Shown piece after piece: positions 1,954-54,920 of a stretch of 64,000 nt of DNA. The translations under genes were made by a program, and so were the position numbers. Location: the IMG/VR virus record IMGVR_UViG_3300032116_000017, one strand, 5' to 3'. The notes beneath the pieces are model-generated. The model searched no databases and had not been told where the DNA came from. It saw only the letters and a program-made list of their open reading frames with translations. The number at the start of each line of letters is the position of its first letter. The stretch's first letter is position 1. The stretch comes from an uncultured virus (IMG/VR IMGVR_UViG_3300032116_000017). Lineage: Duplodnaviria > Heunggongvirae > Uroviricota > Caudoviricetes.

Positions 1954-2213
1954 AACATTTTTTGTTTTTTTGTTTTATAATTTATATAGTTAGATACTAC
2001 TGAAAAAGACACTGATTTTGACAGTTCCGAATGTAATTTACACATTCACTTATAGTAAGACATACATATAGATACTTACTAATATAAGTAATACTACTTA
2101 GTTAAATTTTTTTGATCATTGGATATACTAAAATGCTCAAATCATTAGGTTTTACTGAATCTTTGTATTAAATATAAATATATACTATAGGGATTAAAAA
2201 TTATTTTTCAATT

Positions 2214-4373: not shown

Positions 4374-4375
4374 TT

Positions 4376-4410
4376 AAAAAAACGAGTTATTTAAATAACT
4401 CGTTTTTTTT
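4376..4410. terminator. Palindromic intrinsic terminator
   Basis: AAAACGAGTTATTT/AAATAACTCGTTTT perfect inverted repeat followed by T-run. Confidence 0.75.
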
Positions 4411-4486
4411 GCTCATTAGTCTGTATATAATGCTCAATTTGTATTTTTTATAGCTAAACTTGATTGACTAAATTGATATATAGGGT

Positions 4487-6385: not shown

Positions 6386-6402
6386 AAATAAAAAAAAGAA
6401 AA

Positions 6403-6990
6403 ATGAAAAAACTATTAACTTCTCTAGTTGTTTTGTTTGTGAGTGTTGTTTCCTACTCTCAAACTTTTACAACTACTCAACCAGACACGGTGTGTTTTGG
6501 TTCGACAACTCCTTCAACTTATCAAGTTGCTAACATTGGTTCAGGAACTTATACTTGGACCATTCCTGCTTGCGCATCTATTGTATCTGGGCAAGGAACA
6601 AATCAAATTCAAGTCAATTGGTCTAACTGTCCAGCTGGTTTAATTCCTAATGCTGTTTCTGTTACATATGCATCTCCAGCTCCAGCTAACTGTCCCGCTC
6701 TTCCAGTTGATATGGATGTTTTAATTTATCAAGTTGTACCGACAATCACAGCTTTAGGTCCATTTTGTGAATCTGATCCTTGTGTGACTTTAGTTGGAAC
6801 TCCAGCGGGTGGAACATGGACTGGATTAGGTGTTTCAGGAAACCAATTCTGTCCTGATAACGTAGCTAATGGAACTAACGCTACATCAACAGTTACTTAT
6901 ACACTTACAAATGGTGGATGTACATTTACTACATCGGTAGTTGTTCCGGTTTATGGAACTCCTACACTTTCACCTATACAACACGATTAA
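6403..6990 (+). CDS. Secreted PKD-like/Ig-like protein
   Basis: Signal peptide; YTW...IVSGQGTNQIQVNW PKD-like motif; ends PTLSPIQHD. Confidence 0.75.
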   Translation: MKKLLTSLVVLFVSVVSYSQTFTTTQPDTVCFGSTTPSTYQVANIGSGTYTWTIPACASIVSGQGTNQIQVNWSNCPAGLIPNAVSVTYASPAPANCPALPVDMDVLIYQVVPTITALGPFCESDPCVTLVGTPAGGTWTGLGVSGNQFCPDNVANGTNATSTVTYTLTNGGCTFTTSVVVPVYGTPTLSPIQHD

Positions 6991-7007
6991 AAATAATATA
7001 AAGTAAA

Positions 7008-7574
7008 ATGTTGAGATTATTAAGTTTCATATTTATAATGATGTGTTTTGGTTTGTTTTCACAACAAACTTTACAAATATGCCCTGGTGAAAGCGAGACA
7101 GTTACTTATTGGACTGAAACTACAACACCGGGAGAGATAGTGTGGTCTGTAAATGGAACATCTTATTATAGTGATCAACTTGTTATGAACTGGACACAAC
7201 CTGGAACTTATAATATATCAGTCACTCAAACAAATGGAATTTGTGAAGATAGTAAATACTTTACAGTTATTATAAGTTCTTGTGATGATTTAATTTATTA
7301 TGTTCCTAATTCATTCACACCGGATGATGATAATTTTAACAACATATTTCAACCTGTATTCACAGAAGGATTTGATCCATTTGATTTTCATTTAACTATA
7401 TTTGATAGATGGGGTGAGATTATATTTGAGTCATATGATGCCTCAAAAGGATGGAATGGATATTATGGAAACAAAAAGTGTCAAGATGGGGTATATACCT
7501 GGAAAATCGAATTTGGAAGACCTGGTATAGATGATAGAGAAGTTATAGTAGGACACGTAGTTTTAATAAGATAA
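7008..7574 (+). CDS. Secreted protein with gliding-motility-associated (T9SS type B / CHU_C) C-terminal domain
   Basis: YVPNSFTPDDDNFNNIF...IFDRWGEIIFES...GWNG...DGVYTW...GHVVLIR. Confidence 0.9.
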   Translation: MLRLLSFIFIMMCFGLFSQQTLQICPGESETVTYWTETTTPGEIVWSVNGTSYYSDQLVMNWTQPGTYNISVTQTNGICEDSKYFTVIISSCDDLIYYVPNSFTPDDDNFNNIFQPVFTEGFDPFDFHLTIFDRWGEIIFESYDASKGWNGYYGNKKCQDGVYTWKIEFGRPGIDDREVIVGHVVLIR

Positions 7575-19741: not shown

Positions 19742-19770
19742 AAAAAGACCAACCTATAGTTGGTCTTTTT
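19742..19770 (+). terminator. Intrinsic terminator
   Basis: AAAAAGACCAAC-CTATA-GTTGGTCTTTTT. Confidence 0.75.
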
Positions 19771-19793: not shown

Positions 19794-20360
19794 ATGAAAG
19801 TAATTTTTTTGGATTTTGATGGTGTTATGTGTCTCTCTGAGCAATGGGGTGGACGAGCTAAAAAAATGCTAAAGTTTCAAAGAGAATTTCCGGGTTCAAC
19901 TGAAGATGATATGCCAGCTTGGATTAAGCTAGATAATTTTGATTTTAAGGCAACTAAAGTTCTTAACTCTATTTTATTACATCACGATGTTGAGATAGTT
20001 TGCTCTTCAGATTGGAAATTATTTGCTACTTTAGATCAACTTCAAGATATGTTTGATAAATACGGTGTGATTAAATCACCAATAGATGTCACACCAACTC
20101 TTGTTAAGTATGAGTCTAAATCTCAATTCACACAAAGTGAATTAGAGCAATGGAGAGTTAAAGAAATTAAAACGTGGTTAGATTTACATCCAGAAGTAAC
20201 ACACTGGGTTGCTGTTGATGATATGGACTTAGGTGAGAAGTTTGGTCCTATTTCTGGAAATTCCAATGGTGGTCTAACTAACTTCATATTAACTAAGCAG
20301 TATATTGGAATTAAACAATCCGGAATAAAAGAAAAAATCATTAAGTTCTTAAATGATTAA
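19794..20360 (+). CDS. HAD-superfamily phosphatase, Swiss-Army-knife RNA-repair-like type
   Basis: IFLDFDGV, SSDW, VAVDD motifs; TATATTTG 4 nt upstream. Confidence 0.8.
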   Translation: MKVIFLDFDGVMCLSEQWGGRAKKMLKFQREFPGSTEDDMPAWIKLDNFDFKATKVLNSILLHHDVEIVCSSDWKLFATLDQLQDMFDKYGVIKSPIDVTPTLVKYESKSQFTQSELEQWRVKEIKTWLDLHPEVTHWVAVDDMDLGEKFGPISGNSNGGLTNFILTKQYIGIKQSGIKEKIIKFLND

Positions 20361-20850
20361 TGTTTTAGAAATGGACATGAGTATTGAATACAAGTTCGCG
20401 TGGAATGTAGCTGCTCGAGCTTGTTTCAGTATTTTCTATATCCTACCAGACTGTATGTTACTTTATAGACATCAAGTGTCGGAACCATATATCTGGACTA
20501 AATTCGGATGTAATCACCCTGATAAAATAGATTTAGTAAAACTAGATGGTAAAAATCTAATGTTATTTCATGTTGATGTTTATAAAGAAAAAACTCATAA
20601 ATTTAAAGACCTAATTGATTATTGTCAGTCTAATAACATTGATATCTGGATTCCTTTTCCACTTAAAAACCTTTGGAGAACTGAAGAGCCTCATCTTCAG
20701 ATTATGAAAGATATACTAGATAATTATCAATACAGCACTTACGATTTAACTGGAATGAACTACAGGAGTGAAAATGAAATAAGTAGATTGGTTAAAGAAA
20801 AAACGAAACCTATATTAAGAGATATAAAATTAAGAAACTTATTTGATTAA
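20353..20850 (+). CDS. Hypothetical protein with C-terminal tag
   Basis: Ends LRDIKLRNLFD. Confidence 0.7.
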   Translation: MINVLEMDMSIEYKFAWNVAARACFSIFYILPDCMLLYRHQVSEPYIWTKFGCNHPDKIDLVKLDGKNLMLFHVDVYKEKTHKFKDLIDYCQSNNIDIWIPFPLKNLWRTEEPHLQIMKDILDNYQYSTYDLTGMNYRSENEISRLVKEKTKPILRDIKLRNLFD

Positions 20851-21101
20851 TATTCTATTTTCTCAACATCATCTAAATCAACATAGTATTCATTACCATC
20901 GATTTCTACTGTTATTAAACCATCTTCATCTATATCGACCGGAGTAATTGGATCTTTTGGATCATTATCAGGATATTCTTTAACAATTGTAGAATAGATA
21001 ACTCCTCTTTTCTTAATACATTTTATTATATCATCAATTGTGATAAGAGTTCCTTCTTCATTATTCTGTTTGAAATCCTCAAATAATTTTATCCATTTCA
21101 T
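20847..21101 (-). CDS. Small protein with N-terminal MKxIKxFE leader (putative virion-internal protein)
   Basis: Starts MKWIKLFEDF; TAATATATA 4 nt upstream. Confidence 0.7.
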   Translation of the reverse strand: MKWIKLFEDFKQNNEEGTLITIDDIIKCIKKRGVIYSTIVKEYPDNDPKDPITPVDIDEDGLITVEIDGNEYYVDLDDVEKIEY

Positions 21102-21105
21102 AAAT

Positions 21106-21129
21106 TATATATTAAAAACTTAATATATA
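21106..21129. promoter_or_regulatory. Back-to-back divergent TAATATATA (putative late) promoters
   Basis: TATATATTA 21106-21114 (minus) and TAATATATA 21121-21129 (plus), 4 and 6 nt from the respective ATGs. Confidence 0.65.
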
Positions 21130-21135
21130 AAAAGT

Positions 21136-21948
21136 ATGAAGTATATTAAAAGATTCAACGAAGAGCTTAAACCAGAAACTTATATTAGTGCTGGTTATAG
21201 ATTAAAAAATTTACCAGGTGGTGGAAAAAGAAGATCTTCACCTCTTATTGATTATGGTTTTGGGAAAAAGTATGGTTTCTATAAAATGCACTGGGCTAAT
21301 GGTTCATCTCTTTTAGGAAAAGATTTAACATTTACTAATCTAATATGTGAGAGTTACTTTGGGAGACCTGACTCTTCAAAAATTGAGACTTTTAGGTATT
21401 CAGCAGAAGATGCTGTGGAACTGTGGAAACAAGGTAATCATCCTCTTTGTATGACTTTTAATTTTGTTTTTCAATCTACTGAAGAAACAAAAGATAAATT
21501 AAATAGTAGTAGTGAACTTAATACCAACTGTCCAATGTTCTCATTTGAGATTTGGTTTAGTAACTGGGAAGAAGGTTTAGATTCTTATAATTGGGATTAT
21601 GATACTGAAGAGCCAATGACTGGAGATACCGTAGTTGATTTAAATGGTATGTATAAATGGACTAATGAACTTACAATCTATAAGAAGAAACCTGTTAAAA
21701 TGTATTACTCAAAATCATATCCTTTCTGTGGTATATTTTCAGATAGAGCTTCTGCTTTGAAATTCAAAAAAGAATTAAACAGTTTAATGGATCCACATAA
21801 AGAAAAAGTTATGGAACTTTTAAGCTGTGTTAATGCTTCTGCTGACGACATAGAAGATTTTGAAGATAGAATCAATAAAATAAGTTTAAATCATCTTTTC
21901 TCAGTTGATGAAAAAACAACCAATTGGTTCACATACAATGAATTGTAA
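21136..21948 (+). CDS. Leader-tagged protein, paralog family member 1
   Basis: MKYIKRFNEELKPETYISA...FSDRASALKF. Confidence 0.75.
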   Translation: MKYIKRFNEELKPETYISAGYRLKNLPGGGKRRSSPLIDYGFGKKYGFYKMHWANGSSLLGKDLTFTNLICESYFGRPDSSKIETFRYSAEDAVELWKQGNHPLCMTFNFVFQSTEETKDKLNSSSELNTNCPMFSFEIWFSNWEEGLDSYNWDYDTEEPMTGDTVVDLNGMYKWTNELTIYKKKPVKMYYSKSYPFCGIFSDRASALKFKKELNSLMDPHKEKVMELLSCVNASADDIEDFEDRINKISLNHLFSVDEKTTNWFTYNEL

Positions 21949-21961
21949 ATAAATTAATAAT

Positions 21962-22687
21962 ATGAAACACTTAAAGAAATTTAACGAAGAACTTAGACCA
22001 CAGACTTATATGTCTGCTGCTAGAAAATTAGATAAATTAGGTCACCACGATAGAGCAAATGCTTTAAAAGACTGGGCTAAAGAAACTGAGAAAAAAGAAG
22101 AAATGATTAAGTGGCAAGACCGCATACAAGATTATGCTCAGTTTGGAACATTTAAATTGACTATAAAAAATCCAGAAACTAATGAAACATTAACTGGTGA
22201 TTTTCATTTAGATGTTAATTTTGATGATTTATCATTTAGTGATGAGCCTGAAAGTGGTATAACTTTCTTCTTAGGTTTAATTCCAACTTCTGAAGATTTA
22301 ATCTATCAGTATATGGAACTTTGTCCAGATTATGATTTCGGAAACGGTTTCTTCTGGGGTAAAATCTTTAATTTACAATATGAATTAGGAGATACTGTTG
22401 TATTTACTAAGTGGAATATGTGGGACTATGATGATGAAATGAATGGTAAAATAAATTTTGCTGACAGAGCATCTGCTAACAAGTTCAAGAATTTAATTAT
22501 ACAAATATTTAGTAATCCACAATTAGGTTATCCATCTGGATATACCGACGCTGATGACTTATATGAAAAATTAACTAATACTATCTTAGCAGAGAACTCA
22601 TTCTCTTCTGATTATGGATTTAAATTAGAAGATGCTGCTGAATACATGAGAACAATTAGTCCAAATTTACTTTCTTCTACACTATGA
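21962..22687 (+). CDS. Leader-tagged protein, paralog family member 2
   Basis: MKHLKKFNEELRPQTYMSA...LGH...FADRASANKF. Confidence 0.75.
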   Translation: MKHLKKFNEELRPQTYMSAARKLDKLGHHDRANALKDWAKETEKKEEMIKWQDRIQDYAQFGTFKLTIKNPETNETLTGDFHLDVNFDDLSFSDEPESGITFFLGLIPTSEDLIYQYMELCPDYDFGNGFFWGKIFNLQYELGDTVVFTKWNMWDYDDEMNGKINFADRASANKFKNLIIQIFSNPQLGYPSGYTDADDLYEKLTNTILAENSFSSDYGFKLEDAAEYMRTISPNLLSSTL

Positions 22688-23544
22688 GATACTTAAAAAG
22701 ATTTAATGAAGAGTTAAAAGCATCTACTTACAAAAAAGCAGGTGAGAAATTCACTCAGATGGGTCACAAAAGAAGAGGATCTGAATTATTAGATTATGCA
22801 ACTCAAGTTGAATTAAAAGAAAAATATCAAAAATTAAGACAGGCTCAGGATGAAAATAAGGAGTATGGTTTATTTGATATTACGATGACAAGAGGTTATG
22901 GGTCAAATAAGAAAGATGTATTTTCTGGTAAATTTTATCTACAAATGTGTTTAGAATCTGATTGGTTCAAAGACCAATTATGGGATTGGTTTTATGAAGG
23001 TATGGATTGGCATATGGGAATTGCTATGGAGTTTGCCATTATACCAGCTGATGACGAAACACTTAGAATGTTGGAAACAAGTGAAGACGGAGATATAGTG
23101 TATTTTAGAAATAATACTATGTGGGGAGATGACTATAGATACTGGACAAATAGACTTTGGCTTACACTCTGTGATAAAAATGCAGTTCCTCTTTATATAG
23201 CAGGTGCTGGTGGATTTGAAGATAGAGATTCTTTTACATTCCATTTTAATTCAAGATCAGAAGCTATGAAATTTAGAAACTTATTGGCTAATACATTAGA
23301 AGGAAAATCTGATTGGGGTTCTTATAATGGTAGAACGATTTCTGACCAATTAAAATCAACAATTATTATGGATGAAGAAGACTGGAGATCAAAACTAATG
23401 GATAAGTTTTTACCGGGTAGAGAAGATGAATATGATATTAATAATCCAGATACTTGGCCAAAAAATACTTTTACAGAAGATACTTACAAAGGAGCTATCG
23501 AGGCGGTTAAGAGAATGTCAGTAAATGGTTTATATAGAGATTAA
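22684..23544 (+). CDS. Leader-tagged protein, paralog family member 3
   Basis: MRYLKRFNEELKASTYKKA...MGH...FNSRSEAMKF...NGLYRD. Confidence 0.75.
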   Translation: MRYLKRFNEELKASTYKKAGEKFTQMGHKRRGSELLDYATQVELKEKYQKLRQAQDENKEYGLFDITMTRGYGSNKKDVFSGKFYLQMCLESDWFKDQLWDWFYEGMDWHMGIAMEFAIIPADDETLRMLETSEDGDIVYFRNNTMWGDDYRYWTNRLWLTLCDKNAVPLYIAGAGGFEDRDSFTFHFNSRSEAMKFRNLLANTLEGKSDWGSYNGRTISDQLKSTIIMDEEDWRSKLMDKFLPGREDEYDINNPDTWPKNTFTEDTYKGAIEAVKRMSVNGLYRD

Positions 23545-23547
23545 GAG

Positions 23548-24819
23548 ATGAAGTATTTAAAAAGATATGAAGAAGCTGTCGGTGTTAGATTGAAATCAGA
23601 ATTGAAATCAACAGTTGAAGATTTGCTTATTGATTTAAGAGATGATGAATTTGAAACTAAAGTATCTGAAATAGATTATCATTCTCAAAAAGTAAAGGTC
23701 AAAGTCAATATACAAAGAGATAGAGAATTTACTTATGAAGATATAAAACCTCAAATTGAATCTATTTGGTCTTATTTAAATGAAGAAGGATTTACAATTG
23801 AAAACTTCACTAGTGTAGAAGACTGGGAAAACTTTGAAGAACCAGAAGACGAATTTACAATTCATCAAAAAGATAAAGGTTATGTGTGGTCCACTGGTGA
23901 AGATGGTGAGATTAAATCTATTGACAAAGAATTTCAAAGAAGACCAAATGTCATGATTTCACCAATATATAATCCAGAAAACTTTGATAGAATTCAAAAG
24001 TGGATATTTGAGATTTCATTTACTAAAGATAAAATTGTAGTTGATAGAAAGAGAGGTCATCTTACAACTAATGAAGAGTTAAAACCACAAACATATATAA
24101 GTGCTGCTGATAAACTAACTAAGTTAGGTCATATTAAAAGACCTGAGCAATTAAAATCTTGGGCTGAAACTATTAAGCAAAGAGAAATAGATACTAAACA
24201 CAAAATGGCTTTAGAAGAAGCAAAAAAATTAGGACAATTTCAATTAAGATTTGTTGGTAGAGGAAGTGAAATAAGGTTTGCAAACTGTTACATTCAACTT
24301 TATTTTAATTCCGATTATTACCTAAGTGAGATGTTACCAGAGTGGTTAGATGGTGAGAGAAACACACTTTGGTCACAGTTTATGTTTGGGATTCATCCGG
24401 TTTCTTCAGAAGATTTAGAAGTTTTAAATTGGTTTTCTGGTGATATTAAAGGTTATACAAATAGAGCGAATGGTATAATCTGGTTACAAGATGTTTATAT
24501 CAATCTGACAAATCAAAACTGCAAAGATGAAGATGGTGTGACTTTACCTATGACCCCTTCAGGTGTAGTTTCAATCGAATGCTCTGAATTTAGTGAAGTT
24601 TATTTTGCAAATAGAAGAGAAGCTATTAAGTTTAGAAATTTATTAGTCGATCTTTTCGAGGGAGATATAGATTACATACAACCGAATGGTAAAGACTTTA
24701 AAGAAGATATAATTGAAACTTGGTGTGATCATGAAGAAAGACCAGTTGAACTTTCAGAGTTAGAAGATTTTATTGATAAACTTAGAGTAATGAGATTAAA
24801 TTCATTATATAGAGATTAA
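23548..24819 (+). CDS. Leader-tagged two-module protein; C-half is paralog family member 4
   Basis: MKYLKRYEE start; internal NEELKPQTYISA..KL..LGH; FANRREAIKF; ends NSLYRD. Confidence 0.75.
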   Translation: MKYLKRYEEAVGVRLKSELKSTVEDLLIDLRDDEFETKVSEIDYHSQKVKVKVNIQRDREFTYEDIKPQIESIWSYLNEEGFTIENFTSVEDWENFEEPEDEFTIHQKDKGYVWSTGEDGEIKSIDKEFQRRPNVMISPIYNPENFDRIQKWIFEISFTKDKIVVDRKRGHLTTNEELKPQTYISAADKLTKLGHIKRPEQLKSWAETIKQREIDTKHKMALEEAKKLGQFQLRFVGRGSEIRFANCYIQLYFNSDYYLSEMLPEWLDGERNTLWSQFMFGIHPVSSEDLEVLNWFSGDIKGYTNRANGIIWLQDVYINLTNQNCKDEDGVTLPMTPSGVVSIECSEFSEVYFANRREAIKFRNLLVDLFEGDIDYIQPNGKDFKEDIIETWCDHEERPVELSELEDFIDKLRVMRLNSLYRD

Positions 24820-24835
24820 TTATTATATTTACAAA

Positions 24836-26008
24836 ATGAAAATAAAAAGATATAGACAATTCTTAGAATCAAACTCTAATGATATGTGGAACATTATTCC
24901 ACAGTCAGTGAAAGATTTGCAACAACTTTTTAAATCAAAAGAAAAAAAATTATATGTTGTTGGAGGTGCCGTTAGAGACTTTCTAACAGGAGATACACCA
25001 AAAGACTTTGACTTAGCAACTGATGCACTTCCAGATGAAGTATTAGAAATATTAGGAAGTAAATATAAAACTAACCTACAAGGTAAAGCATTTGGAGTGG
25101 TCGTGGTTTTCACCAATGATCAACCAGAAGGAATGGAGATTGCAACATTCCGAGAAGATGTTTCAAAAGGTAGAAACCCTGAAGTTAAATTAGGAGTTAC
25201 CATTGAAGATGATGTTAAAAGAAGAGATTTAACTTATAACGCACTTTTCTATGATTTAGATACTAAAGAGATTGTTGATTTAACTGGAGGACGTGAGCAT
25301 TTAGCAAAAGGAATAACTCAAATGGTTGGTGATCCTATTGAAAGATTTGATGAAGATTCTTTAAGAATTTTGAGAGCTTTTAGATTTGCTTCAAGATATG
25401 GACACCCTTTACATAAAGATACTGAAGCGGCAATTGAAAAAAGAAAACAATTAGAAAATATAGATCCTGAAACCGGTGAAATGAAAAGAATTTCACAAGA
25501 AAGAGTTTGGGAAGAGATGAACAAGGCGTGGAAACAAGCAAAAGACTATAGAAACTATTTACAATTCTTTACTAAGTTTGATATGTGGTCTGAAGTTTTT
25601 CCAGGCTCTGAAATCAATACCGATCTGGTTGATAGTAAAGACTTTGTGGTTGTTATTGCTAACTTATTTAAGAATGAAAACACGGATGGTTTAGAAAAGA
25701 GATTGGTTCAAGACTACAGAATAGATTCTCAAATGGCATCAAAAATAGTTTTCTTAATTAGATTATTAGAATTGACACCAGATACAGCATTTGATTTACA
25801 TAAGTCAAAATTACAATGTCATATTGAAGATAAAACTATTTTAGAATGGTTTAGAGTTTTGGGTGTAAATGATACTGTTAAAATTAAATTTGTAGAATAC
25901 AAACCAACTACTTCTGCTCAGGAATTGATGTTACAGGGTTTTAAAGGAAAGGCTTTAGGTGATGAGTTAAAAAGACTTGAAATTGAAAATTTCAAGAAGA
26001 TTTTATAA
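24836..26008 (+). CDS. cca: CCA-adding tRNA nucleotidyltransferase / poly(A) polymerase family, with N-terminal leader
   Basis: VGGAVRD, DFDLAT, EIATFR, RRDLTYNAL, EDSLRILRAFRF motifs; starts MKIKRYRQFLES. Confidence 0.9.
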   Translation: MKIKRYRQFLESNSNDMWNIIPQSVKDLQQLFKSKEKKLYVVGGAVRDFLTGDTPKDFDLATDALPDEVLEILGSKYKTNLQGKAFGVVVVFTNDQPEGMEIATFREDVSKGRNPEVKLGVTIEDDVKRRDLTYNALFYDLDTKEIVDLTGGREHLAKGITQMVGDPIERFDEDSLRILRAFRFASRYGHPLHKDTEAAIEKRKQLENIDPETGEMKRISQERVWEEMNKAWKQAKDYRNYLQFFTKFDMWSEVFPGSEINTDLVDSKDFVVVIANLFKNENTDGLEKRLVQDYRIDSQMASKIVFLIRLLELTPDTAFDLHKSKLQCHIEDKTILEWFRVLGVNDTVKIKFVEYKPTTSAQELMLQGFKGKALGDELKRLEIENFKKIL

Positions 26009-26040
26009 TTTTCTCATTTTAAAAATAGATATATACTGCT

Positions 26041-26505
26041 ATGATTTACCACTTATCGTATTTAAGAGACCGTTTAGGAAATAACTATTTAGGAATTAAT
26101 ATTCCAGTCGATTTAATTGAACCCTATTTAAATGAATTAAAAAATCACTTAACTACTGAAGAATACTCAACTTATGTCCAAAATCATCAAAATAGAGATT
26201 CTGGTCATTATCACATTACGGTTATAAATGTTATGGATTATAATAAGTTAGCGGAAGAATGGGGAATGGATAAATTTATTAATTCTTTAGAACCGGTTTT
26301 TCACTATGAAATCGATGACTTAGAAATGTTAGGAGTTGGAAAGGCCATAAAAGAACCAAACGTGGCTTATTTTATCGTCTGTAATTCGGATAAATTAGAT
26401 GCTGTAAGAACTAGATTTGATTTACCAAAACAAGATTTTCATGTTACAATAGGTTTCAAAGATAAAGATGTTTTTGGTGTAAGAAAAAATGAATTACTAA
26501 ATTAA
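26041..26505 (+). CDS. 2H phosphoesterase (RNA-repair type)
   Basis: Two HxT motifs: YHITV and FHVTIGF; GATATATA 5 nt upstream. Confidence 0.8.
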   Translation: MIYHLSYLRDRLGNNYLGINIPVDLIEPYLNELKNHLTTEEYSTYVQNHQNRDSGHYHITVINVMDYNKLAEEWGMDKFINSLEPVFHYEIDDLEMLGVGKAIKEPNVAYFIVCNSDKLDAVRTRFDLPKQDFHVTIGFKDKDVFGVRKNELLN

Positions 26506-26556: not shown

Positions 26557-26829
26557 ATGGAAAAAATGGAACTTTATGATTACTACAATCTTGATGAATG
26601 TGTTGATAGAAAAAAAGTAATTACTACATTAAAGAAGTTTAAAAAAGACGGAAAGATCGATTATTCTTTAGATGGTGAGGAACTTCATATTGAAGATATA
26701 GATTTAGATGATACTGAAATCGAGTATTTGTCTGAACTACTTGACGAAAATGATGTTTTTCCAAATCCTGATAAGGAAGAAGGTGATGATGATTATTCAG
26801 ACTTTGATGACTACGATGATGATTATTAA
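26557..26829 (+). CDS. Small acidic hypothetical protein
   Basis: D/E-rich 90-aa ORF. Confidence 0.65.
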   Translation: MEKMELYDYYNLDECVDRKKVITTLKKFKKDGKIDYSLDGEELHIEDIDLDDTEIEYLSELLDENDVFPNPDKEEGDDDYSDFDDYDDDY

Positions 26830-26862
26830 TAAAAAAGAGTTAGATTTTTCTAACTCTTTTTT
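26830..26862. terminator. Bidirectional terminator
   Basis: AAAAAAGAGTTAGA/TCTAACTCTTTTTT inverted repeat between convergent genes. Confidence 0.7.
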
Positions 26863-27695
26863 GTTTTCTTTCTTTTACGGTTCCAAAAATAAAGAAATAT
26901 TGGAATAATTATAGTAGTCATTAACCATTGCCAGTATTTCTCAAAAAAACCTTCAACTACAATCGGAAGATTTGATTTGATTTTAATATTTTTATTGAAT
27001 ACAATAATGTCTTTATTTAAATCTTTCAACTTAATAACTAACTTTAAAGGAGTTTCACCACTTTTTTTAGGTGTCACAATCCATTCCCATTCTGTGTAAC
27101 TTTCATTATCTATGTTTTGAACAGGAGTTGAAAGTGCAACAATGTTGAAAGCTTCTGAGTCACCTCTTAAATCAGCCGACATCTCACCAGAAACTTTGAT
27201 ATCATCAATTGTTGCGACGCTCTCATATTGAGGATTGTTTATAAAATCATCATTTCCTAATATCAAAACTGATTTATTTTGACCATTTGTCTTTTTAGAT
27301 ATTCTTACTTTTATTGAGTAGTTTTTAGATACCTTCATGCTTTCAGGTACTGAATAAGCTATCCATCCTTTTGCAGTATCAACTATATTTTCAGAGATAT
27401 TTTGAATTGACCTATCCACCACTTTTAAATTTGTATTTTTTTCGTGTTTTTCAACTAGTCTTATTTGATGAATCACATCAATTTTATTGATGTCGTCTTT
27501 TTTTATTACTTTCATTTCTTCAACTAATTCTTGTCTAATTAAAGTGTCTTTTATCGGCTCAACATTTAATTCATCTTTAATAACCGAGACAGTATCTAGT
27601 TTTAAAGACTCTAAATTCGTATCTGATTGGGTTACTTTTTGTGTTGCACATGAGACTAACCAAAATGCACTAATAAAAATAAAAATAAATCTCAT
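26850..27695 (-). CDS. Lipoprotein with C-terminal membrane anchor
   Basis: LVSC lipobox; terminal hydrophobic helix followed by basic tail. Confidence 0.7.
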   Translation of the reverse strand: MRFIFIFISAFWLVSCATQKVTQSDTNLESLKLDTVSVIKDELNVEPIKDTLIRQELVEEMKVIKKDDINKIDVIHQIRLVEKHEKNTNLKVVDRSIQNISENIVDTAKGWIAYSVPESMKVSKNYSIKVRISKKTNGQNKSVLILGNDDFINNPQYESVATIDDIKVSGEMSADLRGDSEAFNIVALSTPVQNIDNESYTEWEWIVTPKKSGETPLKLVIKLKDLNKDIIVFNKNIKIKSNLPIVVEGFFEKYWQWLMTTIIIPIFLYFWNRKRKKTKKS

Positions 27696-27739
27696 ATGTT
27701 ATATATTTAATATGAAAACTAAAATTAATATATAGTTTT

Positions 27740-28993
27740 ATGGATATTATTAAATTTTCTCAGTTTCTAAATGAAAATGTTATGATAACAGTTCTTGACT
27801 GTGTAATTGATGAATTCGGAAATTTATACAATGGAACTAACAATCGATATCCGCTAATGAAAGGATATATTGAAAAAGAGAAACTTCCAAAAATTTCAGT
27901 TGGTAGAATTTTAGGTGATGATAAAAGGACTTATTTAGCTGGTATAGACAAAAACGGTGTTTTAGTAGCAGCTGAAAAAAACAAATCATTAGATGGATAT
28001 CTAATAGATAATATCGGAAATAGAGTAAAAGTTCCGGCTTGGTTAAAAGGTACAAAATCAAGATATTGGAAGTTCTTTGACTTAACAAAGGATGCAAACG
28101 GAAATGATGTTCAAAGTTTTAATTATGATTACACAAGACTTGTTCCAACTGTTGCAACTGGTTGGGTAAATACTAAAGTTGATATGGAAGTCATCAAAAA
28201 AGTTCGTAGATATTCAAGAGGTTTAGGTCAAGGTTCCGGTAGAGAAGGATTCGTTAGTAAATTGTCTGACTTGCAAAGAATATCTTCTGAAGGACTCCAA
28301 AAAAGAAAAAGATCAAGAAATACAATACAGAAAGAAATGTCTGTAATTATGTTACTTCACTACATTAATGAAATTAAAAACTTTTTTACTCCGTCAGCAT
28401 CTGGATTCCTTTTTGAATCATTCTTAGGTGGTTTAATTAAAAACTCAAAAGTGGTTGAAGATAATTCCAAAGCAGATGTAAGAGCTGACGGTGAAACTTG
28501 GCAAATAAAACTTTACGATGCTGTTTCATCCTCTTCGATATCAGTAGCCTATATGGACGAAAGGTCAGTGCCAAAAATTCCGGTAGATCACTTTGTAATT
28601 TGTTTGAAATATGCTGATAAGATTGATATCGTTGTATTAAGAGGTATTGAAGACACAACAGATCCTCTTTGTTATACTAACTTCATAACCGGTGGTGGTA
28701 ATTTTTCTGTAGCTAAAATCAAAAACACACCATTCAAATATACAATAGAGCTTTTAGGTATTGAAGAAAAAATTAAATCTATTGCATCTGGACTTAAAGA
28801 ATCAATAGATGATATTTATTCTGATTTAAGCACTTTTCAATATAATATAGAATCAATAATCACTGGAGTAGATGAGAAAGGAAAATTGTTAAACGAGTCT
28901 AAGTTTGACCAGACTTACAATGAATCAGTTAATATTGCACAAGGACTTGATGTCAAAATAACATCTCTTTACAAGACTATTAAACAAGAATAA
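27740..28993 (+). CDS. Leader-tagged protein, possible restriction-endonuclease-like fold in C-half
   Basis: MDIIKFSQFLNE start; TAATATATA at 27726-27734; GFLFESFL...ADV...QIK spacing suggests PD-(D/E)xK. Confidence 0.55.
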   Translation: MDIIKFSQFLNENVMITVLDCVIDEFGNLYNGTNNRYPLMKGYIEKEKLPKISVGRILGDDKRTYLAGIDKNGVLVAAEKNKSLDGYLIDNIGNRVKVPAWLKGTKSRYWKFFDLTKDANGNDVQSFNYDYTRLVPTVATGWVNTKVDMEVIKKVRRYSRGLGQGSGREGFVSKLSDLQRISSEGLQKRKRSRNTIQKEMSVIMLLHYINEIKNFFTPSASGFLFESFLGGLIKNSKVVEDNSKADVRADGETWQIKLYDAVSSSSISVAYMDERSVPKIPVDHFVICLKYADKIDIVVLRGIEDTTDPLCYTNFITGGGNFSVAKIKNTPFKYTIELLGIEEKIKSIASGLKESIDDIYSDLSTFQYNIESIITGVDEKGKLLNESKFDQTYNESVNIAQGLDVKITSLYKTIKQE

Positions 28994-33492: not shown

Positions 33493-33691
33493 ATTTATTA
33501 TACTACACAGTGAACTTAAGTTTTATTTTTTATATACCTTATTATGATAAAAATAATAGAACTAATTAAAATTTATCCAATATCATTTTTTATGATAGTT
33601 GGTATATTCATAGCCTTAGTATTTACAATTAAAGAAGAAATTGGAAGAAAAAAATGATATGAGAAAAGATTAAGAGTTTTATAAATACTCA

Positions 33692-34204
33692 ATGGGTAGA
33701 AAATCATCAATCAATAAAATAAAAAGAGATAACTCTAAATCAAAAAATATAGAAGCATCTTTGGTAATGTATCTGTATCAAAAATCACATTCACCAATAA
33801 CAACTAGATTCACCGGAATGGGTCTTCAAGAATGTGATGTGATATCAGTATCAAAGTCTGATTATATCTATGAGTATGAAATTAAAATAAGTCGTCAAGA
33901 CTTTAAAAAAGATTTCATTAAAGAAAAACATAATCATATCTTAAATGAGAAATTTACTTATGTTAGAAAGGGTGAACAACTTTTCAGAGTTTGTAATTAC
34001 TTTAACTATGTAGTTCCAAAAGATTTGATTTCAGTTGATGAGGTTCCAGAGTATGCTGGACTTATTTATATCAATGAGGATTTTACTTTTGAAATTGTGA
34101 AGAAACCAATATTATTACATAAGACTAAAGCAACTGCAGGATTTATCAGACAGTTAGCACATAATTTAAGTTGTAAATTAATATTTAATAAGGTTTTATC
34201 CTAG
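33692..34204 (+). CDS. PD-(D/E)xK nuclease-like protein (MmcB-like)
   Basis: ECDVI...YEIKISRQDFKKD; FNYVVP...PEYAGLI; TATAAATA 4 nt upstream. Confidence 0.7.
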   Translation: MGRKSSINKIKRDNSKSKNIEASLVMYLYQKSHSPITTRFTGMGLQECDVISVSKSDYIYEYEIKISRQDFKKDFIKEKHNHILNEKFTYVRKGEQLFRVCNYFNYVVPKDLISVDEVPEYAGLIYINEDFTFEIVKKPILLHKTKATAGFIRQLAHNLSCKLIFNKVLS

Positions 34205-34261
34205 AACACGAGTGAACAACACAATTATAATTTATATATACTAAAAAAATAATAAAACGTT

Positions 34262-34546
34262 ATGGATGAATACATAGGATCAATTTTACCAATGGCATTT
34301 AATTGGTCACCTAAAGGGTGGTATATTTGTCATGGTCAAGTATTATCAATTAATCAATATCAAGCACTTTTTGCACTTATTGGAACTACTTATGGTGGTG
34401 ATGGTGCTACTACCTTTAAGATACCTGATTTAAGAAAAAAGAATTCAGGTGGTAATTATTACCAACCTGGTGAGATTATGGAAGATGGAACTCCTTATAT
34501 TGAGAGTTGTATCTGTGTTGAAGGTATATTTCCTTCGAGACCTTAA
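34262..34546 (+). CDS. Phage tail collar domain protein
   Basis: IGSI..AFN..PKGW..CHGQ.LSI.QYQALFALIGTTYGGDG.TTF.IPDLR. Confidence 0.88.
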   Translation: MDEYIGSILPMAFNWSPKGWYICHGQVLSINQYQALFALIGTTYGGDGATTFKIPDLRKKNSGGNYYQPGEIMEDGTPYIESCICVEGIFPSRP

Positions 34547-34549
34547 ATT

Positions 34550-34580
34550 AAAACCTCATCTTTTAGATGGGGTTTTTTTT
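34550..34580 (+). terminator. Intrinsic terminator
   Basis: AAACCTCATCT-TTT-AGATGGGGTTT plus T-run. Confidence 0.7.
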
Positions 34581-34589
34581 ATTCTAATA

Positions 34590-34712
34590 TTTGTAAATTA
34601 AAATAATTTCCGTATATTTGTATTGTCTGATTGAGACAACGATTTAGATACAACAATCAGAAAAAAAAGATAAGGAAATATTTGGTGAAACCAGAAAAAC
34701 TCCTTATCTTTG
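34590..34712 (+). promoter_or_regulatory. Two tandem Bacteroidota-type promoters
   Basis: TTTG 34590 + TATATTTG 34613-34620 (19 nt spacer); TTTG 34681 + TATCTTTG 34705-34712 (20 nt spacer). Confidence 0.7.
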
Positions 34713-34752
34713 TAAAAGAAATTAATCACTACAAATAAAAAACAAAGAAACT

Positions 34753-35373
34753 ATGGCAAATTTATTCGCAAAAGCAAAGAAAGCAGCACCCGCTAAAACT
34801 ACAGCAGCAAAAGACAAAAAAGTTCGTCTAAACGTAACTGACCCTACATTCTTCTCTAAAGTTGAGAAGTTGGAGCAACTAAACGACACTCTTAAATCAG
34901 CTAAAGCTCAAGCTGACATGATTTCTGACGAAATCAAAGACTTGGCTAAATCTGAGTGGGTTGATTACTACTCTCAAACTGGTAAAAACCCTGAGTCTGT
35001 TATGATTGTTCAGGAAGTTGCTGGAGACACTGCACAAGTTATGTTCATACCTACAGACAAATACATTACCGTTACTGAGGCTCGTGCCGAAGAACTTCGT
35101 GAGACTTACGGTGAAGAAATCGTTGAAGAAGAAACTACTTTCTCTTTTGACTCAACAATGATTGAGAAATACGGTGAAGTTCTTTCTATGTTGATTGAGA
35201 ACTGTGCTGATATCACAGACGCTGACAAAGAGAAAATCATCAAAGCAACTACTAAATACTCTGTCGCTAAAGGAACCATCGACAAATTGAACCAATACGG
35301 TGATGTGACTGAAGTTATGGAAGCTGTTAAACCAGTTGTAGCACTTAAGAACGTTGAAGTTATCAAAGGGTAA
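34753..35373 (+). CDS. Hypothetical protein, probably highly expressed early
   Basis: Tandem promoters; visibly biased codons (GCT, CGT, TTC, TAC, AAC). Confidence 0.75.
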   Translation: MANLFAKAKKAAPAKTTAAKDKKVRLNVTDPTFFSKVEKLEQLNDTLKSAKAQADMISDEIKDLAKSEWVDYYSQTGKNPESVMIVQEVAGDTAQVMFIPTDKYITVTEARAEELRETYGEEIVEEETTFSFDSTMIEKYGEVLSMLIENCADITDADKEKIIKATTKYSVAKGTIDKLNQYGDVTEVMEAVKPVVALKNVEVIKG

Positions 35374-36776: not shown

Positions 36777-36861
36777 GGTCGAGTGATGAAATCGGTATAC
36801 ATGACAGACTTAAAATCTGTTGGGCATTACGCCCGTGCGGGTTCAAGTCCCGCCTCGACTA
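36777..36861 (+). tRNA. tRNA-Leu(TAA), CCA not encoded
   Basis: Acceptor GGTCGAG/CTCGACT; anticodon arm ACAGA-CT-TAA-AA-TCTGT; long variable arm; T-loop GGTTCAAGTCC. Confidence 0.92.
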
Positions 36862-36897
36862 CAAATAGGTAATCTTCGGAAATCCTTATAAAAAAAG

Positions 36898-36969
36898 GGT
36901 CCCATAGCTTAACGGATAAAGCCTCGGTTTTCTAAACCGATAATCCAAGTTCGATTCTTGGTGGGATCA
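36898..36969 (+). tRNA. tRNA-Arg(TCT), CCA not encoded
   Basis: Acceptor GGTCCCA/TGGGATC; anticodon arm TCGGT-TT-TCT-AA-ACCGA; T-loop AGTTCGATT. Confidence 0.92.
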
Positions 36970-36970
36970 C

Positions 36971-49925: not shown

Positions 49926-50141
49926 ATGTTTATCTGTGTTAGTAATACATCAAATAGAAGTGAATTAGAAATAGGAAAATACTATGACTTATTTAAACAT
50001 GAGCAACACCCAAAAGTTGTTTGGGTAAAAATACCCGATTCATCTAATACTGTTGGTTACAGAACTATTCAATGTTATTTAGCTGACTTTAAAAATAAAG
50101 GTCAATGGAGAAATGATCAGATTGATAAGATTTTAGATTAA
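49926..50141 (+). CDS. Small hypothetical protein with C-terminal tag
   Basis: Ends WRNDQIDKILD; TATATTTG 4 nt upstream. Confidence 0.7.
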   Translation: MFICVSNTSNRSELEIGKYYDLFKHEQHPKVVWVKIPDSSNTVGYRTIQCYLADFKNKGQWRNDQIDKILD

Positions 50142-51472
50142 TCTTCCCAAAAGAAATAGACAAACTTATCTGGCCATCTGTAATCAAAGTGTGCAAAACC
50201 ATATAACTCTGCAACTCTTTCTAATCTATCATCAGTATTTCTTGGAAGTTCTCCGTCATACTCGATTGAGTCAAATTCAACATAAACATTATCATCATGT
50301 TCTGTGACATCTAAAATATGTAAGCCAGTATGATGTTCGAAATTGGACCTGAACTCATTGGTATCAAATTTCTTTTCACCAACTCTTTCGTCTTTCTTTT
50401 TGAATTTAAAATCAATTGTGTGAAATTTAATATCTGTTTGTTCACCTTCACTTGAATAAGGCTCGAATTTCACTAAAGACCAACCTAAATCTGAAAGTCT
50501 AGCAATTACCACTTGCATTTCATCACAAATTCTAACAAAGTCTTCATAGGTCTTAAATTTATCATTTTTAAAGAATCTTATAAAAAACTGAGAAACCAAA
50601 ACACCGCTACTCATTTTTATTTGTGGTTGGAAACTGGTATCACCATCTAAATATTGTTGATAAGTAATACCACCACCATGTGATATAAATTTTATATCAT
50701 ATCCATCATCAATAAAATCTAGCATAGTATCAACTATTTGTGAAGTAACATCTTTGTTATCAACACTTTCTTTAATGACGTATCTGTCATTCTTTCTAAT
50801 TGCTAACTTACCATCAATAAATTTATAAAACTTATATTTCTTATCAATTGATGTTACTAAATAATATGCATCTGGATTAAGTGCTTTATATCTTTGAATA
50901 TTACCTTCTACTTTAACTCCATCAACTTCACCACCCTGTTGTTTAGCATAAGCCCATTGAATATAGTGTGGATCAACGTGACGTGATCTTAAAGCATCTT
51001 GGTCAATAGAGGTTTGTAAAGTAGAAAGTAAATGAATGAATATTATTTTATATTTATTTTGTCTAGCATTATCATAAATCTCTTTTATGTGTTCATATCC
51101 TTTATCTGTGAATTCTTTTCCAGCACCAGTTGTGTCATAGATAAAGTTTTGACCAGTTTCCATAAACTCCATCATTCTTAGAAGATTTAATTCAGAAGCA
51201 TTCTTAGTTCTACCACCTTCTTTTTTTTCTCTACCTCTGTAATAAACATTTGGATCTTTTGTAAAAAGAAGTGAAACATCATCAGTTGAGAAGTCTTTAA
51301 TGTTTCTATTTTTAGTATGAATATGATTTTTAACAAAGTAAGACTTTCCGATACCTGGTGCTCCAATCAAGAAGATAGCTAGTCCTCTACTCATTCCAAT
51401 GATTTCTGGAATCGGCTCGTTTTTAGAAACTTCTTCTAAAATAAATTGGTTATATTCCTTAATAAATTTCAT
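50138..51472 (-). CDS. Leader-tagged P-loop kinase (AAA_33/zeta-like) fused to a second module
   Basis: MKFIKEYNQFILE start; GAPGIGKS, IYDTTG, lid R.R; second module after VIKES. Confidence 0.75.
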   Translation of the reverse strand: MKFIKEYNQFILEEVSKNEPIPEIIGMSRGLAIFLIGAPGIGKSYFVKNHIHTKNRNIKDFSTDDVSLLFTKDPNVYYRGREKKEGGRTKNASELNLLRMMEFMETGQNFIYDTTGAGKEFTDKGYEHIKEIYDNARQNKYKIIFIHLLSTLQTSIDQDALRSRHVDPHYIQWAYAKQQGGEVDGVKVEGNIQRYKALNPDAYYLVTSIDKKYKFYKFIDGKLAIRKNDRYVIKESVDNKDVTSQIVDTMLDFIDDGYDIKFISHGGGITYQQYLDGDTSFQPQIKMSSGVLVSQFFIRFFKNDKFKTYEDFVRICDEMQVVIARLSDLGWSLVKFEPYSSEGEQTDIKFHTIDFKFKKKDERVGEKKFDTNEFRSNFEHHTGLHILDVTEHDDNVYVEFDSIEYDGELPRNTDDRLERVAELYGFAHFDYRWPDKFVYFFWED

Positions 51473-54337: not shown

Positions 54338-54365
54338 AAAAAAGAGATCTAATGGTCTCTTTTTT
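54338..54365. terminator. Bidirectional terminator
   Basis: AAAAAGAGA..TCTCTTTTT inverted repeat between convergent genes. Confidence 0.6.
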
Positions 54366-54888
54366 CTTTTTTATACTTATCTAATAACTCTCTAACATTT
54401 GTATAGTCATAATAATCAATATAATTATCTATTGTTTTTATAAAGTTCCAATCTTTTCTTTCAGTAGTTGTTAGTATATTAAAATAGTAATCAAAATAAT
54501 TGAATATTTTTTTTTCTGACACTAAACCATTTTTACAATGAATATTGAAGTAAGCCAGTTTATCAAAAAAGTTATCAAAAAGGTCTCTTATATGTGCTTC
54601 CTCAATTGAAAATCTTGACTTTTGATTATGTGTTTTCAAAGCTTCTATCATATAATCATCATTTACTTTAACTTCCTGTCCATTAATCATAATTTTTCTG
54701 ACATTCCAATCAAGTAGTGTTAAAACAACTTTTACTCTTTCATCTGAAAAAAACTCTTTAATCTCTTTAGATAAAAACTCAGATTCTTTCCAAAGTTGTG
54801 TTTTTCTATATTCAATGATGGCTTTTATAAATGAAAATATTCCAAGCAAAGGAATAATATCAATTATGATGTTATATATTGTCTCCAT
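54349..54888 (-). CDS. Membrane-anchored hypothetical protein
   Basis: N-terminal TM helix; likely ATG start at 54888. Confidence 0.65.
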   Translation of the reverse strand: METIYNIIIDIIPLLGIFSFIKAIIEYRKTQLWKESEFLSKEIKEFFSDERVKVVLTLLDWNVRKIMINGQEVKVNDDYMIEALKTHNQKSRFSIEEAHIRDLFDNFFDKLAYFNIHCKNGLVSEKKIFNYFDYYFNILTTTERKDWNFIKTIDNYIDYYDYTNVRELLDKYKKEKRDH

Positions 54889-54920
54889 AAACAAACACTT
54901 TTTTCTATATATAAATTATT

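Follow-up and report, generated by a model that had tools for sequence, protein, structure and literature searches.

A gene pair of a CCA-type nucleotidyltransferase and a 2H phosphoesterase in an uncultured huge phage: a candidate tRNA 3'-end repair unit with a possible capsid-type tag

Introduction

We analyzed a window of 64,000 nucleotides, which corresponds to bases 95874-159873 of the 175,894-base virus contig IMGVR_UViG_3300032116_000017, and in particular two adjacent genes on its + strand. The first gene (24836..26008) encodes a class II tRNA nucleotidyltransferase of the CCA-adding type (hereafter the CCA enzyme), a protein of 390 residues without an HD domain that was assigned by Pfam and PHROG. 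The second gene (26041..26505) encodes a phosphoesterase of the 2H-SAK family (PF22547) with 154 residues. The two genes lie together in most of the related viral loci, and the CCA enzyme begins with a short leader that resembles the capsid targeting sequence (CTS) of phage T4. Taken as a whole, these findings suggest that the pair is a conserved unit for the maturation and repair of tRNA 3'-ends in a huge phage of Bacteroidota-type hosts, and that the CCA enzyme of this unit bears a capsid-type tag; we hold this reading tentatively, at somewhat below even chances.

The contig represents part of the genome of an uncultured huge phage, whose relatives include the Mahaphage genomes of 634-642 kb. 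Its nearest public relatives, LR745206.1 (634 kb) and LR756502.1 (642 kb), are both uncultured huge phages, and their CCA proteins are 74.6% and 48.4% identical, respectively, to that of the window.

Conservation of the gene pair

Viral contigs were searched with an alignment of the 2H protein, and about 5 kb of flanking sequence was examined in each of the 28 loci obtained (46-66% identity). In 25 of them, a homologue of the CCA enzyme is encoded upstream of the 2H gene, on the same strand and within 5 kb; none was found within this distance in the other three. The gap between the two genes is shorter than 60 nt in about half of the 25 paired loci, and the pair is likewise present in LR745206.1 and LR756502.1. 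An initial annotation of this DNA had named the conservation of the gene neighborhood as a check on its proposal that the two genes work together, and the adjacency of the two genes is indeed conserved. The CCA and 2H genes probably form a conserved pair that is co-transcribed.

Terminator-like hairpins on the + strand were found at 19742-19770 and 26828-26865, and none was found between 19770 and 26828. It is therefore plausible that four tandem paralogues upstream of the CCA gene, the CCA and 2H genes, and an open reading frame (ORF) of 90 residues downstream of them are carried on one transcript. A promoter scan of the window gave a count of 56, compared with 46.6 +/- 5.8 in shuffled sequences, and thus no excess.

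In five loci (L056, L057, L063, L078 and L079), only a part of the CCA enzyme aligned in a single piece, namely the first half in four of them and the second half in one. About 1.5-2 kb separates the aligned part from the 2H gene in these loci. The partial alignments suggest an insertion or a split in the gene.

The CCA-type nucleotidyltransferase

The CCA enzyme matched the PolyA_pol head domain of Pfam (PF01743) with an E-value of 3.6e-30 (105.3 bits; cut-off 23) and the PHROG family phrog_2244, 'tRNA nucleotidyltransferase', with an E-value of 2.4e-58. No HD family was found in the enzyme at E <= 0.01 in the Pfam search. The sequence contains GGAVRD (residues 43-48) with the catalytic DFD (residues 57-59), both within 24962..25012 on the + strand, RRD (residues 129-131; 25220..25228, +) and EDSLRILRAFRF of the EDxxR type (residues 173-184; 25352..25387, +). 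We take these to be motifs A, B and D, respectively, of the class II nucleotidyltransferases. All of them are unchanged across 30 orthologues with 77-96% identity. The description of the gene product in the initial annotation, as a complete class II nucleotidyltransferase without an obvious HD domain, was therefore correct. Judging from its sequence, the enzyme is a divergent member of the class II tRNA nucleotidyltransferases.

It should be considered that the enzyme might instead be a poly(A) polymerase, or might mark RNA of the host or the phage with some other kind of tail. The NCBIfam subfamily pcnB (147.7 bits; cut-off 305.65) scored slightly above the best CCA model, NF009814 (145.7 bits; cut-off 290), and E. 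coli poly(A) polymerase, which scored 89.5 bits by sequence, ranked first by E-value in the Foldseek search. Neither NCBIfam score, however, comes near its cut-off. Among solved structures, the closest by sequence are those of CCA-adding enzymes (6ibp, 104.7 bits; 1miv, 97 bits), and the matched PHROG family is that of tRNA nucleotidyltransferases. In addition, the sister genome LR745206.1 carries 59 tRNA genes that need CCA addition, and one enzyme gene of this kind was found there. Class II poly(A) polymerases are not known outside the beta- and gamma-proteobacteria. A tailing enzyme of this sort thus seems very unlikely, and it is highly probable from the sequence comparisons that the nucleotidyltransferase is of the CCA type.

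The tRNA-binding body/tail region of the CCA enzyme matched PF12627 with 17 bits, which is under the cut-off of 22. The structural model of the enzyme is poor, although its C-terminal 120 residues form confident helices. All of the 40 Foldseek matches obtained with this model at E <= 0.001 were class II enzymes, with TM scores of 0.2-0.31; since the model is poor, these matches confirm the family only.

tRNA genes and the need for CCA addition

The window encodes tRNA-Leu(TAA) and tRNA-Arg(TCT) without an encoded CCA (36777..36970, + strand). CCA is encoded in none of the three tRNA genes of this contig and in none of the 59 tRNA genes of LR745206.1, which mostly lie in four arrays at 342-421 kb. 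CCA addition would therefore be required for every phage tRNA. One CCA-type gene was found in the LR745206.1 record. The CCA gene would be kept because the phage tRNAs need CCA addition, and plain maturation, a role that the initial annotation had left out of account, is a sufficient everyday one for it. In nearly all of these tRNA genes, the discriminator is followed by C-A-A-A, which may be a shared 3'-processing signal.

The 2H-SAK phosphoesterase

The 2H-SAK protein matched PF22547 with an E-value of 1.4e-20 (74.3 bits; cut-off 27). The HxT motifs H58-I-T60 (26212..26220, +) and H134-V-T136 (26440..26448, +) are both invariant in 32 of 32 aligned 2H-SAK sequences, which agrees with the adjacent two-HxT 2H enzyme described at the outset. 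A second, weak Pfam match was to the cyclic phosphodiesterase (CPD) domain of fungal tRNA ligase, and Acb1 gave no match. The predicted model of the protein has a predicted local distance difference test score (pLDDT) of 91.7. In a VIA-wide structure search over 48,161 chains, the top 21 matches were all 2H enzymes, with Z scores from 7.6 down to 4.6. The best match was the LigT-type 1vgj (Z 7.6; root-mean-square deviation 4.2 over 124 residues), and RNA cyclic phosphodiesterases of the LigT/ThpR type led the ranking with Z scores of 7.6, 7.2, 7.2 and 7.1. Foldseek with the same model gave no match at E <= 0.001, its matches appearing only at E >= 0.025. A comparison of the sequence with solved structures gave nothing meaningful, the best hit (E 0.085) being an unrelated protein.

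The HD domain of E. coli Cca acts on 2',3'-cyclic phosphate ends. In this multifunctional protein, as in the present pair with its candidate 2H enzyme, a CCA head domain is combined with an activity on such ends. The HD domain is fused in E. coli, whereas here there is no HD domain and the end-healing candidate is a separate 2H protein encoded next door. The NCBIfam model of the multifunctional CCA addition/repair protein (NF008137) scored 87.9 bits on residues 38-256 of the CCA enzyme, compared with a cut-off of 451. By analogy, it is rather likely that 2H-SAK opens 2',3'-cyclic phosphate ends toward a 3'-OH and so stands in trans for the HD domain of E. coli Cca. Heal-then-rebuild, a concept already known from E. 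coli Cca and from the review of jumbo-phage RNA repair (PMC7824862), would be a reasonable mechanism for the pair. None of the findings links the pair to a particular defense that attacks tRNA ends.

The product of a 2H enzyme carries a 2'-phosphate. A phosphatase step would therefore still be needed. A HAD_SAK_2 phosphatase is encoded in the window (19794..20360, +; PF18143 at 1.2e-23), and the initial annotation had included a HAD enzyme in the assays that it proposed. The gene is not a conserved neighbor of the pair: a homologue lies within 5 kb of the 2H gene in only 3 of the 28 related loci, and none was found in LR745206.1 at E <= 1e-5. We therefore rejected HAD_SAK_2 as a part of the module. 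SAK domains were reportedly defined by Burroughs and Aravind in 2016; HAD_SAK and 2H-SAK are both present in the window, but their genome link, unlike that of a SAK RNA-repair set, is not kept.

Another interpretation of 2H-SAK is that it serves as a counter-signaling nuclease, which acts on cyclic oligonucleotides or on signals of the 2'-5' oligoadenylate type in the manner of Acb1 and the viral 2H phosphodiesterases, and that its adjacency to the CCA gene has no mechanistic meaning. The Foldseek and VIA-align matches do include the penguinpox cyclic GMP-AMP (cGAMP) phosphodiesterase, phage Acb1, mouse hepatitis virus (MHV) ns2 and rotavirus VP3, and the 2H protein of the window is short and stands alone. 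The Pfam results, with 2H-SAK at 74 bits, the weak fungal tRNA ligase CPD match and no Acb1, argue otherwise, as do the top Z scores of the RNA 2',3'-cyclic phosphodiesterases, tied within 1 Z though they are, and the retention of the CCA pairing in 25 of 28 loci at 46-66% identity. We consider a counter-signaling role quite unlikely.

The protein of the window is the short, 154-residue form of 2H-SAK. In many relatives it has about 246 residues, with an additional C-terminal domain of about 90 residues that has no family match (L001 10162-10902; L002 9565-10299).

The N-terminal leader

The 12-residue leader of the CCA enzyme, MKIKRYRQFLES (24836..24871, +), was called as a T4-CTS-like tag in a weight-matrix scan, where it obtained the top score of the contig. 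The weight matrix was built by rule from 23 ORFs of the contig, and a score of at least 8 bits was required for a call. Within the contig, 34 of 241 ORF N-termini reached this score, compared with 2 of 49,893 internal positions, a count that is partly circular because the matrix was trained on ORFs of the same contig. A looser rule gave 41 tagged ORFs. The leader noted in the initial annotation is thus well supported by its distribution. In independent DNA, that of LR745206.1, the score was reached at 48 of 930 N-termini and at 16 of 176,760 internal positions. As controls, 45 kb of T4 (68 ORFs) gave no call, and 50 kb of Tenacibaculum phage PTm1 (62 ORFs) gave one.

Over many ORFs of the contig, the consensus of the tag is M-[KR]-x-[IL]-K-x-[YF]-x-x-F-x-E-S, and a variant M-K-x-[IL]-K-x-Y-x-x-F-[IL]-x-E-S was also seen. 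In the CCA leader, K4, Y6, F9, L10, E11 and S12 are invariant in 30 orthologues. Among 23 distinct CCA orthologues, F9 is invariant (TTT in 15, TTC in 8), Y or F is kept at position 6, and the third codon positions are the most variable. The Lys, Phe, Tyr and Glu codons of the tag vary as they do genome-wide, and Ser is encoded from both the TCN and the AGY families. The tag also precedes the core of the family, residue 29 of the CCA enzyme being equivalent to residue 13 of 1miv. The leader is a portable N-terminal peptide under amino-acid-level selection.

Two other readings of the leader were rejected. A Sec signal does not fit, since the tag is not hydrophobic but charged, and genuine signal peptides are readily recognized elsewhere among the ORFs. 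A DNA-level repeat does not fit either, since the codon variation shows conservation at the peptide level.

A start codon of the CCA gene could nevertheless have been assigned wrongly, with the true start at M17, or the leader could reflect a motif in the DNA such as a recombination site, a promoter or a translation-start signal. M17 (window 24884-24886) is invariant in the 30 close orthologues and often present in those that are more distant, and an AT-rich motif lies upstream of many tagged genes. The codon usage described above, however, is that of a selected peptide, the tag is retained on operon-internal genes that have no upstream motif, and several orthologues keep the tag but lack M17. 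An artefact of this kind is extremely unlikely. With M17 conserved in most orthologues, internal initiation could also yield an isoform without the tag.

The upstream motif was observed in the following forms. The promoter-like TAATATAT, at a distance of 4-7 nt from the ATG, was found in 15 of 41 tagged genes, compared with 15 of 200 untagged genes. Many tagged genes have the motif TTAATATATA, which ends 4-7 nt ahead of their ATG, for example at 21120-21135 and 27722-27739 of the window; if this motif is a -10-type element, the mRNAs would be nearly leaderless. In a second upstream class, to which the capsid gene of the relative belongs, TATATA is located 20-30 nt upstream.

Proteins with and without the tag

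Most of the tagged ORFs belong to no known family. Those with a recognizable domain are the CCA enzyme, an RNA ligase of the RnlA family, a fusion of a 2H domain with a DEDD exonuclease, a P-loop protein, a pterin-4a-carbinolamine dehydratase and an Asp/Glu racemase. The ligase (Rnl1), which is of the T4 RnlA family, is encoded at 53941-55260 of the contig (L016:2941-4260; +) and matched TIGR02308 at 4.7e-43 and phrog_562 at 5.9e-62. Its tag forms an extension of about 20 residues ahead of the start of the family model, with residues 22-377 of the protein corresponding to model positions 4-353. The fusion protein (33638-35344 of the contig, L014:16638-18344; -) combines a 2H domain (2_5_RNA_ligase2, 2.4e-09, with a weak Acb1 match) with an RNase_T/DEDD 3'-5' exonuclease, and is by its domains a candidate enzyme for the trimming and healing of RNA 3'-ends. 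Orthologues of the CCA enzyme, Rnl1, the 2H fusion and others in LR745206.1 retain the tag.

The tagged P-loop protein (50138..51472, -; 444 residues) is weakly similar to polynucleotide kinases: it matched phrog_505, 'polynucleotide kinase', at 2.6e-05, and AAA_33 at 0.0077, the latter under its cut-off. Its leader, MKFIKEYNQFILEE, scored 24.9. A further tagged ORF of 417 residues (27740..28993, +) begins with MDIIKFSQFLNE and scored 15.3.

No tag was found on the replication, nucleotide-metabolism and chaperone genes examined, namely those for gp32, topoisomerase II, ribonucleotide reductase (RNR), DnaK/DnaJ/GrpE, ClpB and the sigma factor. Among the RNA-repair genes, 2H-SAK, HAD_SAK_2, RlaP, a HAD_PNKP-like protein and an AAA_33 kinase are untagged.

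In the portions of Iyer et al. (2021, PMC7824862) available to us, CCA-adding enzymes, 2H phosphoesterases, SAK-type HAD phosphatases, RlaP and RNA ligases are described as phage answers to attack on tRNA. The present contig has all of the enzyme types listed there. These portions of the article contain no mention of an N-terminal tag, of loading into the virion or of a fixed CCA-2H pair.

The contig resembles T4, with its Pnkp/Rnl1 repair system, in having an RnlA-family ligase and a weakly polynucleotide-kinase-like P-loop protein. T4 Pnkp and Rnl1 are made after infection and are not known to be packaged, whereas both counterparts in the contig carry the capsid-type tag. Literature searches, which covered listings and abstracts, returned no virion-packaged CCA-adding enzyme and no report of this tag in huge phages.

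A more distant phage of 595 kb, LR756511.1, encodes a CCA-type enzyme of 508 residues (580680-582206; L081) with an N-terminal extension of about 85 residues that starts with MRTTFLEF. Two genes further on, a HAD phosphatase is encoded (582920-583582), in which a start of MNLNFRQYVEG precedes the DxDGT motif. These two genes are possibly another variant of the tag and of a repair pairing.

Relationship of the leader to the T4 capsid targeting sequence

In the T4 record NC_000866, IPII and IPIII begin with MKTYQEFIAE and IPI with MKTFKEFTS. The CTS of these internal proteins is removed by the prohead protease gp21. Its residues 4 and 7 are assigned to targeting and its residues 8 and 10 to processing (PMC9026906), and it loads foreign proteins that are later injected (PMC9026906, PMC3012670). 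Here too, proteins that are unrelated to one another share a short peptide at the N-terminus. Its two aromatic residues, spaced three apart, correspond to T4 residues 4 and 7, and its [IL]-x-E to residues 8 and 10; one ORF of the contig starts with MKIKKTYQEFIKES. There are also differences. The tag of the CCA enzyme has F-L-E, one residue shorter than [ILV]-x-E, and the phage tag is 2-3 residues longer than the CTS ahead of the first aromatic residue. Since the register differs from that of T4, the likeness is confined to the tag core. Furthermore, there are at least 34 tagged ORFs in 176 kb here as opposed to a handful in T4, and the putative cargo here includes RNA-repair enzymes.

The two relatives of the contig also have, as T4 does, a Gp23-type capsid protein (88.7 and 95.9 bits), and they encode a head maturation protease in one ORF with a scaffold region. 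This protease-scaffold ORF of about 700 residues is located directly before the capsid gene (198546-200669 in LR745206.1 and 225272-227371 in LR756502.1). Its N-domain matched phrog_207, 'head maturation protease', at 6e-30 and 6.4e-32, and shares 35% identity with the 'prohead core scaffolding protein and protease' of PTm1, a cultured relative that has the protease-scaffold fusion as well.

The middle of this ORF consists of about 13 tandem repeats of 13 residues, NIxYSEY[IL]AENLDK, each with an [IL]-x-E site. The unit Y-S-E-Y-[IL]-A-E-N resembles both the phage tag and the core of the T4 CTS, and the tag core, aromatic-x-x-aromatic-[ILV]-(x)-E-[SN], fits both the CTS and the repeat. In the LR745206.1 proteome (about 196,000 residues), the pattern [YFW]xx[YF][LIV]xE[NS] occurs 28 times. 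Eleven of these occurrences are N-terminal, compared with 0.3 expected; of the remainder, 8 are in the protease-scaffold ORF, 3 in an 83-residue ORF beside dnaJ and 6 elsewhere. Since the tag resembles the scaffold repeat, we infer that it would join the scaffold core by imitating one unit and would be cut by the same protease.

The ORF beside dnaJ is present in both genomes as a small ORF of 55 residues (contig 47375-47542, outside the window) and 83 residues (LR745206.1 460435-460686), on the - strand in both. It comprises 3-4 scaffold-like repeats and a basic tail ending in KNLFN. Its product might belong to the core as a minor protein, or it might provide a connection with the chaperones of the phage.

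Proposed role of the gene pair

In the reading that we prefer, the nucleotidyltransferase would add or restore CCA on phage and host tRNAs, while the 2H enzyme would open 2',3'-cyclic phosphate ends and make the 3'-OH available. The tag would dock the CCA enzyme on the prohead scaffold core, the prohead protease would cleave the tag after Glu, and the mature enzyme would be ejected with the DNA. The ejected enzyme would complete the first tRNAs of the phage and repair those that have been clipped, ahead of any new protein synthesis. Docking on the scaffold, cleavage after Glu and ejection with the DNA are proposed by analogy, and their chance of being right seems to us close to, but under, one half. 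The 2H-SAK protein has no leader in any of the 32 aligned sequences and would act from new synthesis, so that only the CCA half of the pair would be packaged. The injected repair module of the initial annotation would accordingly hold at most for the CCA enzyme, which has a T4-CTS-like leader, and not for the untagged 2H-SAK and HAD proteins.

A broader version of this proposal is that the tag copies one 13-residue unit of the scaffold, and that dozens of proteins are loaded by means of it. Among them would be a pre-made tRNA repair kit of the CCA enzyme, Rnl1, the 2H-exonuclease fusion and the kinase-like protein, which would be trimmed and ejected to mend tRNA ends cut by host defense and to finish the 50-60 CCA-less tRNAs before phage protein synthesis. 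This version, also built on analogy, is speculative and we consider it doubtful.

Several points weigh against the preferred reading. On the side of the enzymes, the near-tie of the pcnB and CCA models in NCBIfam means that sequence alone leaves CCA addition and poly(A) synthesis undivided, and the AlphaFold model of the CCA enzyme has an overall pLDDT of 65.5, with less than 50 in the leader. An isoform initiated at the conserved M17 would lack the tag, and its N-terminus would lie at the position where bacterial CCA enzymes start. For 2H-SAK, the structures of Usb1, MHV ns2, CNPase and Acb1 trail the top match by 1-2 Z; since the Z scores are nearly tied, the fold does not separate RNA-end from cyclic-nucleotide enzymes. 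A phosphatase step is needed after the 2H reaction, yet HAD is not conserved nearby.

On the side of the tag, the weight matrix gives no score to the T4 internal proteins, the register being different. The tag is present on 14-17% of the contig ORFs and on at least 5% of those in the 634-kb relative, which would make far more cargo species than in T4, and the pterin-4a-carbinolamine dehydratase and the Asp/Glu racemase would be odd cargo. The TAATATAT motif is enriched before tagged genes and is placed differently before the capsid gene. Pfam S77 (T4 gp21) reached 20-23 bits on the relatives' protease, under its cut-off of 27. Capsid, protease and scaffold genes were not found in the 176-kb contig, which is a fragment; the head module is therefore known only from relatives of 48-75% identity, and the packaging of tagged proteins in this clade would rest on analogy.

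Alternatively, the protein could be an ordinary cytoplasmic CCA enzyme that matures the CCA-less phage tRNAs after being made in the infected cell. The leader would then be no capsid address but a docking or regulatory tag for another partner, such as DnaK/DnaJ/GrpE or ClpB, a replication or translation factory, or timed proteolysis. All 59 and all 3 of the tRNA genes lack an encoded CCA, the tag occurs on metabolic enzymes, the phage has Hsp70, DnaJ, GrpE and a ClpB-like ATPase, and the small scaffold-repeat ORF adjoins dnaJ in both genomes. The different placement of TAATATAT before the capsid gene hints that the tagged genes belong to another expression class than the head genes. The tag core, on the other hand, matches the T4 CTS at the targeting and cleavage positions, and it matches the protease-scaffold repeat of the lineage in a pattern that hardly occurs elsewhere in about 196,000 residues. 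We know of no chaperone or degron tag of such a form. We regard the cytoplasmic explanation as somewhat unlikely.

Neighboring genes

Four tandem leader-tagged paralogues of 270, 241, 286 and 423 residues are encoded directly upstream of the CCA gene (21136..24819, +). Their N-termini are MKYIKRFNEEL, MKHLKKFNEEL, MRYLKRFNEEL and MKYLKRYEEA. None of the four matched a Pfam or PHROG family, and a Protein Atlas look-up of one of them gave no usable match. Relatives of two of the paralogues were found in 17 of the 28 loci. The four proteins have in common a second module (NEELKPxTYxSAAxKLxKLGHxxR...) and a C-terminal F-x-NRxxAxKFxNLL motif. In the 423-residue paralogue, the second module is internal (at about residue 183), behind an extra N-domain that bears its own tag.

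A small leader-tagged ORF of 84 residues, which begins with MKWIKLFEDF, is located at 20847..21101 on the - strand and is conserved in 17 of the 28 loci. Downstream of the 2H gene, an acidic ORF of 90 residues (26557..26829, +) is followed by the terminator-like hairpin at 26828-26865; its homologues also come after the 2H gene in the related stretches L001 and L002.

Genome context

The G+C content of the window is about 30%. The window codes for a T4-type gp32, topoisomerase II, RNR, Hsp70/DnaJ/GrpE, a ClpB-like ATPase and a sigma factor. It also codes for surface proteins of the Bacteroidota style, namely a TonB-dependent receptor, a protein with the C-terminal sorting domain of the type IX secretion system (T9SS), a subtilase and several signal-peptide proteins (44344-48692 on the - strand, and 391-7574). 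The presence of such host-like surface proteins in a phage fits a Bacteroidota host. The capsid protein of the relatives clusters with those of other metagenomic phages of 460-735 kb and of Lak phages, in a grouping that takes in jumbo phages of Tenacibaculum, Chryseobacterium, Flavobacterium and Sphingomonas. Al-Shayeb et al. (PMC7162821) assign genomes larger than 634 kb to the 'Mahaphage' clade, with predicted Bacteroidetes hosts, and name CCA-adding enzymes of huge phages in the figure legends.

Biological implications

Even without packaging, the fixed CCA-2H pair is a straightforward candidate for a counterpart, in two proteins, of the E. coli CCA/HD repair enzyme. Should the tag prove to be a capsid address, these phages would deliver translation-repair enzymes as protein, and the few anti-restriction proteins that T4 injects would be extended into a large library of exchangeable cargo. 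The resemblance of the tag to the scaffold repeat offers a concrete, testable rule of cargo recognition, which could serve for loading foreign proteins into large capsids.

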